From positions 926,519-990,518 of the forward strand of contig CAVPNL010000006.1 of NCBI GenBank assembly GCA_963706575.1: a stretch of 64,000 nt of DNA, given 5' to 3'. The position numbers were made by a program, and so were the translations under genes. This document shows, piece after piece, positions 23,219 to 29,076 of the stretch (positions are counted from its first letter, which is position 1; every line of letters begins with the position of its first letter). The notes under the pieces were generated by a model. The model saw nothing but the letters and a program-made list of their open reading frames with translations, was not told where the DNA came from and ran no database searches. This DNA is from an uncultured delta proteobacterium (lineage in GTDB: Bacteria > Desulfobacterota > Desulfobacteria > Desulfobacterales > JAHEIW01).

Positions 23219-23449
23219 ATGCGAATCAACCTGCGCAATATGCACGATAATCAGGCAGGCACAATTGCCAGCGTTAAAGTGGCGGGCGAGCTGGGGCGGC
23301 GCCTCCGCGATATGGGACTTGTTCCGGGAACCGAAATTAAAATCCAGGGCCGCGCCCCGCTATATGACCCCGTGGCGTTAAGAGTCATGGGGGCGACGCT
23401 GACGCTGCGCAACAATGAAGCCGATTATATCGAAGTGGAGGTCGAATAA
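23219..23449 (+). CDS. feoA: Ferrous iron transport protein A
   Basis: RRLRDMGL.PG; APLYDP; LRNNEA. Confidence 0.95.
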   Translation: MRINLRNMHDNQAGTIASVKVAGELGRRLRDMGLVPGTEIKIQGRAPLYDPVALRVMGATLTLRNNEADYIEVEVE

Positions 23450-23452
23450 CAT

Positions 23453-25680
23453 ATGGCACCAACAGTCGCCTTGGCCGGCAACCCCAATTCCGGCAAAACC
23501 ACCCTTTTTAACGAACTCACCGGGTCGCGGCAGCATGTGGGCAATTATCCCGGCGTGACGGTCGAAAAAAAGAGGGCACTTATGTGCGGATCCATGACGG
23601 CTTCAGGCTGCATATCGTTGATCTTCCCGGCACCTATTCCCTCACGGCCTATTCCCTGGAAGAAGTGGTGACCCGTGATTTTCTGGTCAACCAGAAACCG
23701 GAAGTAGTCATCAACATCGTTGATGCCTCCAACCTGGAACGCAATCTATATCTGGCCATCCAGTTCCTTGAAATGGGTATTCCGATTTGCATCGCCCTCA
23801 ACATGATCGATGTGGCCAAAAAACGGGGGATTAAAGTCAATGCCCAAAAACTTTCATCTCTGCTGGGCGTACCCGTCACCCCAACCGTTGCCCGCTCCGG
23901 CCGGGGCAAAAAGGAACTCATGGACAGCGCCTCTCAGATTGCCCGGGAACCTCATCAATTGACGTCGCTTAAAATTTCTTACGGGGCGGATATCGACCCG
24001 GTGCTTTCTGAAATGGAAAAAGAAATAGCCGACCACCATTTTCTAACCGACACCTATCAGGCGCGCTGGATTGCCTTAAAATACTTAGAAAGCGATGAAC
24101 AGATTATTGGTAAAGGCCAAAAGGTCAATCCGGACCTTTCCAGCCGCCTGAGGGAAATGGTGCGCAAGGTCTCTCACCACCTGCTAAATACCCTGGATAC
24201 CTATCCGGAGGCCATGATTGCCGATCAGCGTTATGGGTATATCAAATCGATTCTGAAGCAAGGGGTCATCCACCACAAATACGACCGCAACCGGCTGTAC
24301 AGCTCGGATCGAATCGACAAAGTGGTGACCAATCGCTTTGTGGGCCCCTTAATCATGTTGGCGGTGATTGCCGGGCTGTATCATTTTACCTTTACTTACA
24401 GTAAATTACCGGTAGGATGGCTGGAAAGTTTTTTTGGCTGGCTGGGGTCAACCCTGTCGACCGTCTTACCGGAGGGCATGCTGAAATCGCTGATCGTATC
24501 GGGAATCATTGATGGTGTCGGCGGCGTCCTGGGTTTTGTGCCCCTCATCATGTTTATGTTTTTCGGCATTGCCATACTGGAGGATTCCGGCTATCTGGCC
24601 CGGGTGGCCTTTATGCTGGACCGCGTATTTCGTATATTTGGTTTGCACGGCAGCTCGGTGATGGCGTTTATTGTATCCGGCGGTATTGCCGGGGGCTGTG
24701 CCGTGCCGGGGGTGATGGCAACCCGCACCCTCAAGTCACCGCGTGAACGCCTGGCCACCCTGTTGACCGTGCCTTTTATGAACTGCGGTGCCAAATTGCC
24801 CGTATTTGCCCTGTTGATTGCGACGTTTTTTGCCAAATATGAGGCGGCCATTATGTTTTTGATTACGCTTGGTGCCTGGGCCGGTGCGCTGCTGGTTGCC
24901 AAGCTGTTGCGCGTCACGGTCATCAAAGGTGCGGCGACTCCCTTTGTGATGGAGCTTCCCCCCTACCGCATGCCGACCTTCAAAGGCCTGGCCATTCACA
25001 CCTGGGAGCGCACCTGGCAATATATCAAAAAAGCCGGGACGGTGATTTTGGGGCTGTCGATCGTACTGTGGGCCATGATGACCTTTCCCGGGCTGCCGGA
25101 TTCGAAGATTCAGGAGTTTGAAACATTGCGCCAGGCGGAAATAAATCTTGTGCCGGCCGGAGTTGCCGCTGAACTGGAAGCTGCCCGGGAAGGTACTGAG
25201 CTCTCCGGACCGGCGAGCAGCCTTAAAGAACGGATCCAACGCATCCATGCAGCCGAGGCTGAAGCCGGATTGCGAAATTCGATCGCCGGTCGTATTGGCG
25301 GCGCATTGGAGACCGTATCGAAATGGGCAGGTTTTGATTGGCGAACGAATATCGCGCTGGTGGGCGGATTTGCCGCCAAGGAAGTGGTGGTTTCAACTCT
25401 GGGTACGGCCTATTCTCTGGGAGAGTTGGATCTTGAAGAAACCGGCTCTTTGTCTGAAACCCTGGCCAGGGACCCAGGCTGGTCACCCTTGGTGGCGGTA
25501 GGTCTGATCGTTTTTACGATGTTCTATTCACCCTGTTTTGTCTCGGTCATCTGTATTTCAAGGGAATCGGGTTCCTGGAAATGGGGCGTGTTTGCCATGG
25601 CATTTAATACCGTGCTGGCCTTTGTTTTAGCGGTGCTCATCTTTCAAATTGGATCCGCCTTCGGAATTTTGGTGAAATAA
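23453..25680 (+). CDS. feoB: Ferrous iron transport protein B, split by a one-base indel at the A run 23565-23571
   Basis: GNPNSGKT and [12 protein letters not shown] in one frame; [13 protein letters not shown] and membrane domain in the -1 frame. Confidence 0.92.
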
Positions 25681-26590: not shown

Positions 26591-26857
26591 TTATCCGGCA
26601 GGCGGGGTTTTTGGCATATTTTGAATGACTTCTTTTAATTTTTTTGAGAAGTCTTTGGGGACAGGCCTGTTTTCCGCCTGTTTACACAGGTCAACGGTTC
26701 GCTTAAGGGTCTGCAGGCAAACAAAGCAGGGGACGCAATCTTTGATGTGCTTCTCGATGTCTTTGCAGGACACCTCATCCAGTTCATTATCCAGATACTC
26801 GGAAAGTTTTTGAAACAACTCCAGGCAGTGTTTATGATCGTGCTCATCTTTATTCAT
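26591..26857 (-). CDS. Soluble zinc-finger (zf-HC2/ZAS) anti-sigma factor
   Basis: LSEYLDNEL...HIKDCVPC (HxxxCxxC); overlaps the sigma stop codon. Confidence 0.88.
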   Translation of the reverse strand: MNKDEHDHKHCLELFQKLSEYLDNELDEVSCKDIEKHIKDCVPCFVCLQTLKRTVDLCKQAENRPVPKDFSKKLKEVIQNMPKTPPAG

Positions 26858-27467
26858 TTTCAAAATACCCTTTCAATTTGTCCCTCAAAAATAAGCGTGC
26901 CCGGTGTAGCCTGACTTTCACATTCGCATCCGATAAATTCAAAATCTGTGCGGTTTCGGCCGTGCTGAACCCTTCAATGTCTCTTAATACAATCACCAGT
27001 CGGTATTTTTCGGGAAGCGTATAAATGGCTTCGTTGATCTTATCTAAAAGTTCATCGTTTAGCAGCTTATCCAGGGGCATCAGCGCCCATTTGGGAACCT
27101 GATCGGGAACTTCGGCTTCCTCCTGGGGGAAAAACTCATCCAGGGACAATTCCTGTTTCGGGGCGAATTTTGATTTTCGCCGCTTTTTAATGCACGTGCT
27201 GGCGGCCACCCGGTAGAGCCAGTTTTTAAATTTGGTTTCGTAGCGGAAATTCTTTAAATATCGAAAGACATTTAGAAAAGTTTCTTGAACCGTATCTTCG
27301 GCATCGGCCGTATTGCGACACATCCGCAGGCTGAAATTATACAGCTTTTGCTCGTACCGTTTGACAAGGTCCGAATAACGATCGAATTGGCCTGAATTGA
27401 TGGCCTGAATCAGCTCAAAATCTTTATCTTTTATCTTTTTGCGCTTCGCTGGCCTGGGTACTGTCAT
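26850..27467 (-). CDS. ECF sigma-70 factor
   Basis: DAEDTVQETFL, FKNWLYRVA, LPEKYR..IVLRDIEG, NVKVRLHRAR. Confidence 0.95.
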   Translation of the reverse strand: MTVPRPAKRKKIKDKDFELIQAINSGQFDRYSDLVKRYEQKLYNFSLRMCRNTADAEDTVQETFLNVFRYLKNFRYETKFKNWLYRVAASTCIKKRRKSKFAPKQELSLDEFFPQEEAEVPDQVPKWALMPLDKLLNDELLDKINEAIYTLPEKYRLVIVLRDIEGFSTAETAQILNLSDANVKVRLHRARLFLRDKLKGYFENE

Positions 27468-27588
27468 GGTTGCTTGTCACCTGACAAGAATTTTTCAGTC
27501 AGGTCGGAATGCCTAATTTTGGAAGAATATAGGCCTGCAGGAGAATCCAGATACCCGCAATGCCTAACATGATGATAAGCTCTTTCAT
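27424..27588 (-). CDS. Putative 54-aa membrane selenoprotein (U at codon 30; UxxxxC), not in ORF track
   Basis: AAGGAG-N7-ATG; MKELIIMLGIAGIWILLQAYILPKLGIPT-TGA-LKNSCQV...KDKR-TAA; SECIS-like hairpin 10 nt after the TGA. Confidence 0.7.
27473..27488 (-). promoter_or_regulatory. Putative bacterial SECIS hairpin
   Basis: CUUGUC-AGGU-GACAAG; G-containing apical loop resembling the CAGGU of the E. coli fdhF SECIS. Confidence 0.65.
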
Positions 27589-27616
27589 AATCATACTCCT
27601 TGTAATTAATAAGATC

Positions 27617-28093
27617 TCAGCGGGCATTTGTCCACTGTTTTTTAAAAATCAGGCAGTAGGCGGTTACTATCAAGAATGTCATCACCAGTCCCAGATGGGC
27701 TAAATCCAGGAAGATAATAAACCGCGGCCCGAACTGGTTTCCTGCCAGATTTCGGATCACCAGCAATATGCCCGATACCAGAATGCCAGCCAGAATTGCG
27801 CCCCGGACGTAACCGGTGGCGGTCAGGCGAAGGTGTTTTTTTTGCAGAATCAGGTAGTCAATGGCCATGTAGGCCACCAGCGCCAGGATTAAAATTGCGG
27901 CCAGGTAATGAATATAATGGGTCACAAAAAATTGCGCCAGCCAGCCAAGACCGGGGATATCGGCAATGTAGTAGCGTTTAAAAATGGGCATTTGGCCGAA
28001 ACCGGTGAGGGTTAATAAAAAGACTGTTAACAAATAAACATAGCGAACGGTACGGTTGGGTACCTTTGATATAGCGGTTTGTTGCACTTTCAT
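27617..28093 (-). CDS. Four-TM membrane partner of Fe-S protein (cytochrome b-like)
   Basis: TGFGQMPIFKRYYIADIPGLGWL; His residues in TM segments; follows the Fe-S gene. Confidence 0.75.
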   Translation of the reverse strand: MKVQQTAISKVPNRTVRYVYLLTVFLLTLTGFGQMPIFKRYYIADIPGLGWLAQFFVTHYIHYLAAILILALVAYMAIDYLILQKKHLRLTATGYVRGAILAGILVSGILLVIRNLAGNQFGPRFIIFLDLAHLGLVMTFLIVTAYCLIFKKQWTNAR

Positions 28094-28113: not shown

Positions 28114-29076
28114 CTATTCGCTGCTCTTTGTCAGTTTGACAAATTTTCCCACTGCTGCCGCAATTCCGGCCACCGGGGCAAGGATCATTGCAGTCGCCAG
28201 GTTGTTGGCCTGGGCCATGGTGTCTTTTACCGGTTTGAGGTGCGGCTTTCCTTTGCCCTTTTCAATGGCCTTATTCAGCTCTTCAAACGGCACCGGTGAA
28301 ACATAAATGGTATTGGTTCCGCCATTTTCTTTCTCACCGTAAATATAGCCGTTGGTTTCTTTGGCCAGCGCCCGCGCTTTTTGGATGATTTCATCCCGCG
28401 GCCCGATAGTCTGCATATCCTCGGGGCAGGCTTCGATGCAGGCCGGCAATTGGCCGTCTGCGATTTGGTCGTAGCAGCGGTCGCACTTGTACATCACACC
28501 GTTGCCGGCAAAGGACGGCAGAATATCAAGATACAGGCCTGTTCCTGTCTGGCGCTGCGGGATATCCCAGGGGCACACCTTTTTACACTTGGAACCCCCG
28601 AGACAAATATCGGAATCGATCCTGGATATACCATTGTCAAGCTGCCGCGCAGCGCCCCAGGGGCAGAGTTTTACACACGGCGGATTGACACAGTGCATAC
28701 AGCGTCGGGGCATTGTTATTTCCTGTTCTTCACCATTTAAATCAACAGTGGCATGTTGAATAAAAAGCCAGTTGTAGGGGGTTAGACGATCATCAACATC
28801 CTGCTTTTCCGACCAGTCTTCAACCGGCACCCGGTTGGGATACATTTTGGGAAATGGTTTAGGGGGATTGGGGTATTTATGAGCGTTGGTTTCATTACAG
28901 GCTTCCACACAGGCGCCGCAACCGATGCATTTACCGATGTCCAGCAAGGTCGCCAGCTGAGTTTTCCCCTGTGGTGCCGCTGCTGCGGAAGCACCCGGAA
29001 TGCTGCCGGCAGCCAGGCCGGCTGCTGCTGCGATTCCGCTTCTTAAAAATGTTCTTCTTGAAATTTCCTGCCCCAA
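28114..29076 (-). CDS. Tat-exported 4Fe-4S dicluster protein (HybA/FdnH-like)
   Basis: SRRTFL Tat motif; CIGCGACVEAC, CMHCVNPPC...CP, CLGGSKC...CP, KCDRC...PAC...CP. Confidence 0.9.
   Translation of the reverse strand: MGQEISRRTFLRSGIAAAAGLAAGSIPGASAAAAPQGKTQLATLLDIGKCIGCGACVEACNETNAHKYPNPPKPFPKMYPNRVPVEDWSEKQDVDDRLTPYNWLFIQHATVDLNGEEQEITMPRRCMHCVNPPCVKLCPWGAARQLDNGISRIDSDICLGGSKCKKVCPWDIPQRQTGTGLYLDILPSFAGNGVMYKCDRCYDQIADGQLPACIEACPEDMQTIGPRDEIIQKARALAKETNGYIYGEKENGGTNTIYVSPVPFEELNKAIEKGKGKPHLKPVKDTMAQANNLATAMILAPVAGIAAAVGKFVKLTKSSE

Follow-up and report, generated by a model that had tools for sequence, protein, structure and literature searches.

The window analysed here, a 64,000-nucleotide (nt) stretch of the genome of an uncultured delta proteobacterium of the phylum Desulfobacterota (assembly GCA_963706575.1, contig CAVPNL010000006.1, positions 926,519 to 990,518), carries on its minus strand a small open reading frame (ORF) with an in-frame TGA. 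Our analysis indicates that this codon, the UGA at 27501-27499, is very probably decoded as selenocysteine (Sec), and we put the probability of this at roughly 0.9. The product would be a membrane-anchored selenoprotein of 54 residues with a U-x4-C motif, a reading that is supported, at the level of sequence comparison, by the invariance of the TGA, by homologues that carry Cys in its place, by a covarying hairpin just downstream, and by the presence of the Sec machinery in the genome. The family is widespread in sediment bacteria.

The small ORF (27424..27588) opens with ATG at 27588-27586, 7 nt after a Shine-Dalgarno sequence AAGGAG (27596..27601, minus strand) that can be read directly, and GAGGAG or AAGGAG stands at the equivalent position in the upstream strings of most relatives. 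Codons 1-29 correspond to MKELIIMLGIAGIWILLQAYILPKLGIPT, and the TGA is followed by LKNSCQVTSNHDSTQASEAQKDKR and then by TAA at 27426-27424, which gives 54 residues if the TGA is Sec. The proposed Sec30 (27499..27501, minus strand) would have its partner in Cys35 (27484..27486). The hairpin, which we regard as a candidate selenocysteine insertion sequence (SECIS) element, occupies 27473..27488 on the same strand, starting 10 nt after the UGA; its 6-base-pair (bp) stem CUUGUC/GACAAG closes an AGGU loop at 27482-27479, and its DNA, CTTGTC-AGGT-GACAAG, forms a perfect stem while coding for S-C-Q-V-T-S. A preliminary description of this DNA had proposed such a selenoprotein, and direct reading and translation confirm the positions it gave for the ribosome-binding site (RBS), the ATG, the TGA, the TAA and the hairpin.

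The conservation of the TGA was assessed at increasing phylogenetic distance. A six-frame search with the 54-residue read-through, in which U was written as C, covered 61 genomes of the same genus, family or order, including the window's own, and recovered 53 copies in 52 of them (E ≤ 8e-7). The in-frame TGA is present in all 53, as codon 30 in 52 copies and as codon 29 in one; 20 of the 53 loci come from the window's genus, and the counts are non-independent. Remaining matches have E ≥ 0.03, one of which (genome G032, E 0.03, without a stop) was rejected as a homologue. The consensus of these closer relatives reads L-L-Q-x-Y-I-L-P-K-L-G-I-S-T-U-[LM]-x-x-[SA]-C-Q-[VL]-T, and in the Sec-form alignment A1 (43 sequences) M1, L22, P23, G26, T29, U30 and C35 are invariant. 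With the A1 profile, matches at E ≤ 0.01 came from 188 of the 401 genomes sampled across the window's phylum, and exactly one TGA is found in each of the best 150 matches listed. The family extends to Planctomycetota, the phylum of Lacipirellula limnantheis, where 201 sampled genomes yielded 20 matches, 19 of them with TGA; U at the motif position was confirmed in 17 of these 19 loci, and the motif search found nothing in the other two. Neither TAA nor TAG was seen at the Sec site in the 53 close copies, the 150 listed phylum matches or the 19 of 20 Planctomycetota matches.

Across 70 aligned loci, the TGA column has an entropy of zero, as against 1.07-1.83 bits at the third positions of the four preceding codons. 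Past the TGA, the frame stays open for 13 more codons in 70/70 loci, and the other two frames meet a stop in 60/70 and 46/70. The mean entropy per codon position after the TGA is 0.99/0.62/1.33, and the sole indel seen, at locus L076, is of 6 nt, that is, two codons. Furthermore, C35 and the reading frame are retained where no sigma gene follows the small ORF, as at loci L065, L066, L068 and 13 others.

Homologues with Cys in place of the TGA were found as well. A profile search of 1.84 billion representative proteins returned 1404 at E ≤ 0.001, and among 60 full-length representatives drawn from the listed matches, position 30 is Cys in 37, Trp in 19, Gly in two, Arg in one and Ser in one. 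The Trp and Gly forms retain the C-Q-V-T of the Sec forms and are therefore most readily explained as TGA on short contigs that was translated under genetic codes 4 or 25. A pattern scan of species-representative genomes, whose pattern contained TCMSGAC and could thus find Cys forms only, located 44 loci with C-x4-C in Planctomycetota, Myxococcales/Polyangia, 'Deltaproteobacteria' metagenome-assembled genomes, Acidobacteriota, Nitrospirota, Omnitrophota and others, and a TGY codon at the Sec position was confirmed in 43 genomic Cys-form loci. The Cys forms share the layout of the Sec forms: all three alignments, A1 for Sec forms and A2 and A5 for Cys forms, keep P23, G26, position 30 (U in A1, C in A2 and A5) and C35 without exception, and T29 is kept in the same way in A1 and A5, with slight variation in A2. 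The Q-V-T that follows C35 is conserved in Sec forms only.

These comparisons also reveal how the gene has been recorded. Gene callers report 29-residue 'hypothetical proteins' for the small ORF, and a nearer protein search gave seven W-forms, the rest being cut at T29, some with N-terminal extensions, and all being unnamed or called 'hypothetical protein'. The expectation that ORF callers would miss the gene is thereby borne out; with only 29 codons before the UGA, it is probably overlooked by annotation pipelines. Trp or Gly at the Sec position recurs in public metagenome calls (P0002-P0008, P0066-P0085, P0069 and P0107), apparently because callers choose code 4 or 25 for short contigs, a systematic artefact that hides selenoproteins.

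Across relatives, the hairpin behaves as would be expected of a SECIS element. Of the cells of a 7-pair helix in the alignment of 70 loci, 84.1% pair and 61 are changed on both sides; the covariation score of 0.332 exceeds that of shuffled alignments (0.190 ± 0.014; reached in 0 of 500) and of registers slid along the sequence (0.09-0.18). At pair 33-46, CG (33 sequences) and UA (31) are almost equally common, and at pair 36-43 UA (48) prevails over CG (19). The third base of the Cys codon covaries with the first base of the Thr/Ala codon, as TGT-ACA (Thr) or TGC-GCA/GCG (Ala), and the change from Thr to Ala can therefore be ascribed to RNA pairing of the two codons. At L076, the two-codon insertion shifts the hairpin along with the sequence, and at L104 and L107, where the residues past Cys35 differ, a different hairpin lies farther downstream.

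Sec and Cys forms differ sharply in this region. A stem of at least 5 bp is present in 97% of 79 Sec forms (G+C 0.47) versus 44% of 43 Cys forms (G+C 0.62), and a stem of at least 6 bp in 80% versus 23%. Sec-form stems almost always start 8-11 nt past the UGA and carry a 4-nt loop, whereas those of Cys forms are scattered. In the window's phylum, the loops are AGGU, AGUU, GGGC or AGGC. In Planctomycetota, the residues that Sec forms encode past the Cys are different and the hairpins are unrelated: their loops are GGA, GUC, GGUC, AGUU, GGC and GGU, and the stem reaches at least 5 bp in 16 of 17 and at least 6 bp in 11 of 17. The genome's own selD hairpins have G-rich loops such as GGA and start about 15 nt after the UGA. 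Bacterial SECIS elements begin some 10-20 nt past the UGA and bear G, often as GU, in a small apical loop. The proposal that a perfect hairpin with a G-containing loop, 10 nt after the TGA, acts as a SECIS element is thus strengthened by the covariation and by the contrast between Sec and Cys forms.

The window's genome holds matches to selA (604.8 bits), selB (376.5 bits), selD (380.3 bits) and tRNA-Sec (75.2 bits); selD is matched twice, and both copies contain an in-frame TGA. TGA is nevertheless an ordinary stop in this genome, as the membrane gene upstream of the small ORF ends in it. The second selD (contig C3 of the window's genome G000, 438965-439886; loci L011 and L012) is in two adjacent pieces, one covering model positions 3-198 with the TGA and the other 204-310, which suggests that this copy is frameshifted or split. 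Because selA is near-universal in the phylum (371 of 401 genomes), its correlation with the TGA form is uninformative; selB and tRNA-Sec are both present in all five high-completeness genomes that have the TGA form and gave no selA match. The preliminary description had made its proposal depend on conservation of sequence and hairpin past the TGA, on Cys-for-TGA homologues and on the Sec machinery. Homologues keep both the sequence and the hairpin, Cys occupies the position in 37 of the 60 representatives with TGY in 43 loci, and selA, selB, selD and tRNA-Sec are all present.

Several observations count against decoding as Sec or narrow the evidence for it. The two outermost pairs of the helix fail in 21 and 31 of the 70 sequences. 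The folding energy of the window's own sequence is unremarkable (z -1.31, with 24 of 200 shuffles folding equally well), and in its fold of lowest energy ACCUGAC pairs instead with GUCAGGU; this alternative is paired in 79% of cells across the 70 relatives and shows no covariation. The stem is perfect and lacks a bulged U, a feature of the upper stem of E. coli fdhF that belongs to E. coli-type elements specifically, and the distance of 16 nt from UGA to loop is at the short end for bacterial SECIS elements. The phylum-wide TGA count covers the best 150 matches, with 50 weaker ones outside it, and selA was not found in 30 of the 401 genomes of the window's phylum. In addition, a scan of 27350-27650 against Rfam gave noise only (E ≥ 2.5). 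The case beyond chance is comparative and consists of the invariance of the TGA, the covariation and the Cys homologues.

The alternative pairing lies at 27479-27505 (minus strand), where ACCUGA(C), which includes the Sec codon, complements (G)UCAGGU, the 5' arm and loop of the hairpin. A lower or alternative form of the SECIS element could underlie it, or else a side effect of codon conservation; as it shows no covariation, we treat it as unsupported, without excluding it.

The protein is predicted to have a single transmembrane (TM) helix at about residues 4-22 (27523..27579, minus strand), as the preliminary description had it. The 19-residue Kyte-Doolittle mean peaks at 2.37 over residues 4-22, and an AlphaFold2 model computed from A1 has a helix at residues 2-25 (predicted local distance difference test, pLDDT, 87-93) followed by coil (pLDDT 51-67). 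The three-residue N-terminal flank holds 0.7 Lys plus Arg on average, compared with 3.2 over the 25 residues past the helix in Sec forms (2.6 in Cys forms); from this charge distribution, the positive-inside rule predicts an N-out/C-in topology, which would place U30 and C35 at the cytoplasmic face of the membrane.

On present sequence evidence, this is a novel, uncatalogued family of predicted selenoproteins of an established kind, very small, membrane-anchored and abundant, with both Sec and Cys forms. Searches against Pfam-A and NCBIfam release 20 with the window protein, 43 Sec forms and 16 plus 39 Cys forms gave no family above cut-off; the nearest ESM Atlas cluster is annotated 'hypothetical protein' with no common Pfam family, and a PDB profile search gave nothing better than E 0.21. 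Membership of NF033684 (suffix_2_RND, cut-off 40 bits), for which the best E was 0.0022 in 3/43 Sec forms and 0.07 in 1/39 Cys forms, was rejected, as the scores are below cut-off and a search of the window's genome gave no match at the small ORF. An inventory from May 2026 lists 119 prokaryotic selenoprotein families, each with a domain identifier (PMC13188914, Table 1), and a single-TM U-x4-C family is absent among them. Full-text literature searches, assessed at the level of hit lists and abstracts, gave no published description of the family.

The gene downstream of the small ORF encodes an extracytoplasmic function (ECF) sigma factor (26850..27467, minus strand) with Sigma70_r2, Sigma70_r4_2 and Sigma70_ECF domains (PF04542, PF08281), and its ATG at 27467 falls within the tail that follows the TGA, in a different frame, so that the two genes overlap by 44 nt, a feature that the preliminary description missed. 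Measured from the UGA, sigma's first in-frame ATG comes 31-40 nt downstream in 38 of 41 sigma-linked loci, equivalent to 5-14 nt past the hairpin, and the tail of the small ORF and sigma share 35-65 nt. In the 31-nt class, which comprises 26 loci including the window, the AGGUGA formed by the loop and the 3' arm is the only Shine-Dalgarno-like element, and in the window the sigma ATG follows it after 9 nt. A purine-rich stretch past the hairpin is found at several loci of the 37-nt class. With the hairpin on the ribosome-binding region of sigma and the two ORFs overlapping, this geometry argues for translational coupling of sigma synthesis to that of the selenoprotein, for and against which the odds seem to us about balanced. 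A further proposal, that the hairpin both recodes the UGA and ties sigma synthesis to the fate of that codon, is more speculative, and we consider it doubtful. Under it, sigma synthesis would respond differently to read-through, to a pause with SelB bound and to termination 10 nt upstream; if it were true, a single RNA element in control of a stress regulon would integrate thiol stress with the supply of selenium or Sec-tRNA.

Next to sigma lies the gene for a soluble zinc-binding anti-sigma (ZAS) protein of 90 residues (26591..26863, minus strand), zf-HC2 and RsrA-like, with a PF13490 match at 2.4e-8 and the motif H-x3-C-x2-C; against the RsrA equivalog model TIGR03988 it scores 32.5 bits, under the cut-off of 62.5. 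Upstream of the small ORF are the genes for a 158-residue four-helix membrane protein (27617..28093, minus strand), with no match in Pfam or NCBIfam, and for a multi-4Fe-4S protein with a twin-arginine translocation (Tat) signal (28114..29076, minus strand; Fer4_7, Fer4_11, TAT_signal), which is HybA/HmcB/FdnH-like, resembling HmcB, HybA and the formate dehydrogenase beta subunit while scoring under the cut-off of each. The neighbours that had been named for this locus, namely the Fe-S protein and its anchor, the ECF sigma and the anti-sigma, are thereby confirmed. In the 158-residue protein, His62 and His133 are invariant and a GF[GA]QMPIFKRYYIADIPGLGWLA stretch is almost invariant (alignment A7); the model has four long helices, and the best fold match, a weak one, is the FdnI cytochrome b (1kqf_C; probability 0.89, TM-score 0.48, E 0.35). 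Copies of it that are 77-91% identical are named Desulfobacterales bacterium. The family is uncharacterised, its members being called 'hypothetical' or 'uncharacterized membrane protein', and no catalytic subunit lies near its pairing with the Tat Fe-S protein. A terminator-like hairpin (27618-27637, minus strand) lies over the stop codon of the 158-residue gene, 30 nt before the start of the small ORF, and about 50 nt of this terminator-like region are retained upstream of the small gene even where the membrane gene is absent (L035).

Among the 53 closer-relative Sec loci, sigma lies downstream in 37, the anti-sigma is present in 36, and the Tat Fe-S protein and the 158-residue membrane protein lie upstream in 26 and 29, respectively. 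At 27 further loci of the phylum, sigma and anti-sigma occur at four and the Fe-S and membrane pair at two. Elsewhere in the phylum, the Sec form has MobB as a neighbour at several loci, and also MoaE, a P-type ATPase together with NicO, and many unrelated genes. Rarer neighbours of Sec forms, seen at one or two loci, are rhodanese and a CCG-domain protein, each at a single locus, and rubrerythrin; the hybrid-cluster protein occurs at one locus per phylum sample, accompanied by YgbA_NO in the window's phylum. The small gene stands just downstream of mobB or near moaE at L049, L050, L051, L059, L072 and L081, and at L087, L089 and L094; this adjacency to molybdenum-cofactor genes could be inherited synteny or a functional link. 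By tblastn, none of the window's four neighbour proteins was found at the 17 Planctomycetota Sec loci, one of which has rubrerythrin with the hybrid-cluster protein and another an HlyD adaptor.

Cys-form loci offer a partly different picture. In 13 of 44, from other phyla, the gene immediately before the Cys form encodes a short soluble ZAS anti-sigma, in an order that is the reverse of the window's, and sigma matches just upstream of the anti-sigma in four (L127, L135, L137 and L138); tblastn gave a match to the Fe-S or membrane protein in 0/44. L127 and L140 have a thioredoxin gene upstream, and several of the 13 have RND or MacB efflux genes on the downstream side. Four further arrangements recur: metallo-β-lactamase plus rhodanese, the small gene, TauE and a flavoprotein resembling sulfide:quinone oxidoreductase (SQR) at L110, L111, L133 and L152; thioredoxin, the small gene and a DsbD_TM-thioredoxin fusion, with a sigma-54 GAF activator nearby, at L115, L119, L124 and L130; AcrB, the small gene and a CoA-disulfide-reductase-like/rhodanese fusion at L116, L129, L134 and L144; and Usp, the small gene, DUF302 and PIG-L at L136, L146, L150 and L151. 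RND-adjacent Cys forms at L140, L142, L145, L147, L148 and L149 bear a third Cys in a C-P motif 5-8 residues past C-x4-C, a subgroup that could bind metal. The common theme of the neighbourhoods appears to be the handling of thiols, persulfides or oxidants; the contexts are heterogeneous, and no mechanism is proven by them. Of the putative functional link between an Fe-S and a sigma module that the preliminary description had drawn, the synteny with sigma/anti-sigma recurs in two phyla, while that with the Fe-S protein and its anchor was found in the window's phylum only.

From the motif and these neighbourhoods, we propose the following mechanism. SelB would read the UGA as Sec, guided by the short hairpin 10 nt downstream with its 6-8 bp stem and AGGU or AGUU loop, to give a product of about 54 residues with a three-residue N-terminus, one TM helix and a flexible tail starting with the invariant L-P-x2-G-x2-T-U-x4-C. 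The Sec/Cys pair would then most likely cycle between selenol/thiol and selenenylsulfide, or carry sulfane sulfur, and the protein would act as a membrane-anchored redox arm serving defence against thiol, persulfide or electrophile stress; in the window's lineage, the small gene would have become translationally fused to the ECF sigma and RsrA-like anti-sigma pair. A redox or sulfur-carrier role at the cytoplasmic face seems to us to have an even chance of being correct. The whole of this explanation, comprising the selenoprotein, the proposed role and the coupling, we regard as likely and as the best account of the data at hand. It has to accommodate 13 of the 53 closer-relative loci and 23 of the 27 phylum-level loci that have none of the window's four neighbours, the many housekeeping genes among the neighbours, and a motif of the sigmaR/sigmaE type, GGAA[CT]-N15-18-GTT, that occurs within 300 nt upstream at 3 of 53 loci, which is the chance level.

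An altogether different account would have the TGA as a true stop, leaving a 29-residue membrane micropeptide and a hairpin that regulates sigma by occluding its RBS or through coupling. The 29-residue proteins reported by gene callers, the AGGUGA 9 nt before the sigma ATG, the 31-40 nt spacing of the sigma start from the TGA in 38/41 loci and the non-significant folding of the single sequence would all fit. A mere stop, however, would not be expected to be TGA in 19 of 20 Planctomycetota matches and never TAA or TAG in the 53 close copies or 150 listed phylum matches, to be replaced by Cys in homologues, to be followed by C35 and an open frame at loci that lack sigma, or to be accompanied by a stem of at least 5 bp at a fixed position in 97% of Sec forms as against scattered stems in 44% of Cys forms, and we consider this account very improbable. 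If the UGA is accepted as Sec, the U-x4-C motif might bind a soft metal (Cu, Zn, Cd or Hg) instead, handing it to an efflux system or sensing it for one. Cys forms do lie by RND pumps, CusB-like HlyD_D23 adaptors and AcrB (L129, L132, L142, L144, L145 and L147), some of them with the third Cys described above; the Sec form at L057 lies between a P-type ATPase and NicO, three of 43 members weakly match the RND 'suffix' model NF033684, and feoAB with a DtxR/MntR regulator is nearby in the window. That model is matched below its cut-off, however, and not by the window's ORF, and the other recurrent contexts are of sulfur and thiol redox (persulfide dioxygenase-rhodanese, TauE/SQR-like, thioredoxin/DsbD, CoA-disulfide-reductase-like/rhodanese and RsrA-like anti-sigma), which makes a metal-binding function unlikely in our view. 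As for feoB itself (23219-25680 with feoA at 23219-23449, plus strand), it is apparently frameshifted: the ORF at 23453-23671 is the FeoB N-terminus with the G1 motif GNPNSGKT and then runs out of frame, and the main ORF, from GTG at 23584, matches FeoB_N from position 46 only, indicating either a pseudogene or an assembly error.

Two further functions for a selenoprotein start from its neighbours in the window, and we hold both to be improbable, somewhat more so than metal binding. In one, it would be a subunit or electron acceptor of the upstream module of Tat Fe-S protein and putative four-helix cytochrome b, with transmembrane electrons reducing the selenenylsulfide by analogy with the reduction of DsrC by DsrMK. 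Adjacency of the Fe-S protein at 26/53 and of the 158-residue protein at 29/53 closer-relative loci, the invariant His62 and His133, the FdnI fold match and a CCG-domain (HdrD/DsrK-like) protein directly downstream at L072 are consistent with it; yet the fold match is weak (E 0.35, TM-score 0.48), and the module is found at only 2/27 phylum-level loci and is absent by tblastn at 17 Planctomycetota Sec and 44 Cys-form loci. In the other, the selenoprotein would bind the soluble ZAS anti-sigma as a putative membrane tether or redox sensor, through a mixed selenenylsulfide or a shared zinc site. Both proteins bear reactive Cys or Sec on the probable cytoplasmic side, and they are adjacent in two phyla and in opposite orders (36/53 and 4/27 Sec loci, 13/44 Cys loci), but most members in both phyla have no sigma or anti-sigma neighbour, and co-transcription with an autoregulated sigma operon would suffice to explain the adjacency.

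The locus is represented in RNA libraries. Contigs from four such libraries, from sediment and wetland, cover it at ≥ 90% identity, with all 30 bins filled in two runs; one contig of 178 nt spans 27478-27655 with seven differences, and many contigs from relatives match just the core 27461-27504. Since RNA libraries can contain DNA and the contigs reveal neither strand nor transcript ends, they attest to presence only, and this tempers any case for expression. On the strand of the small ORF, a sigma-70 scan placed no promoter immediately before the gene.

The present work would add to the 119-family inventory of May 2026 (PMC13188914) a predicted selenoprotein family that is missing from it, and that occurs in about half of the 401 sampled genomes of Desulfobacterota, in Planctomycetota and in 1404 metagenome representative clusters. 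It also exposes an annotation blind spot, in which tiny ORFs are cut at the UGA or misread under codes 4 and 25. The position of Sec and Cys forms beside sulfide-oxidation, thioredoxin/DsbD and SigR-like genes offers a handle on what may be an unrecognised thiol/selenol component of redox or sulfur homeostasis at the membrane surface in sediment anaerobes, and the overlap of SECIS element and RBS would provide a simple system in which to study gene regulation coupled to recoding.

The family is best compared with the SelB/SECIS-dependent redox selenoproteins of the UxxC and CxxU families (PMC13188914, Table 1), with which it shares the UGA followed by a hairpin with G in its loop, Cys orthologues, a second Cys close by, and a genome with selA, selB, selC and selD. 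Unlike these, it has the spacing U-x4-C, no thioredoxin-like or other known fold, a length of about 45-55 residues and one TM helix. The nearest by name among the 119 families are TsoA, the 'LULAxC motif selenoprotein' (NF045695), and TsoB (UxxxxU), which are likewise recently described bacterial selenoproteins with a short spacing of Sec to Cys or Sec to Sec and an association with rhodanese and DsbD; the spacing in TsoA, however, is U-x3-C, and hmmscan with NCBIfam release 20 gave no match to NF045695 or NF045694 in 43 Sec and 39 Cys forms. In architecture, the predicted protein resembles the eukaryotic SELENOS and SELENOK, small single-pass membrane proteins with a Sec in a disordered cytosolic tail, and for SELENOS a Sec188-Cys174 selenenylsulfide has been proposed (PMC3628699). 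Here, in contrast, Sec is near the membrane and five residues before the Cys, and the SECIS element would be bacterial and within the ORF rather than in the 3' untranslated region; sequence similarity to SELENOS or SELENOK was neither found nor expected.

With DsrC/DsrMKJOP and the HdrD-type CCG enzymes, the proposed mechanism has in common a flexible arm with two redox-active chalcogens, complexes of Tat Fe-S proteins and cytochrome b, and the context of a sulfate reducer. DsrC is soluble, of about 105 residues, with two Cys 10 residues apart, and the window has no DsrK-like partner; the analogy is one of neighbourhood only. The SigR-RsrA switch is similar in combining an ECF sigma with a short soluble anti-sigma of the H-x3-C-x2-C type, and thioredoxin genes occur with the pair at Planctomycetota loci; it differs in that the anti-sigma here falls under the TIGR03988 cut-off and no SigR-type promoter motif was found, and we know of no SigR operon in which a selenoprotein gene overlaps sigma. 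Finally, in the leader of E. coli selAB, a SECIS-like element lets SelB repress translation, and the window may hold a comparable arrangement in its putative SelB-binding hairpin on a translation-initiation region. Unlike the selAB element, the hairpin described here would also serve as a SECIS element within an ORF, and its target would be an ECF sigma factor rather than the Sec machinery itself.

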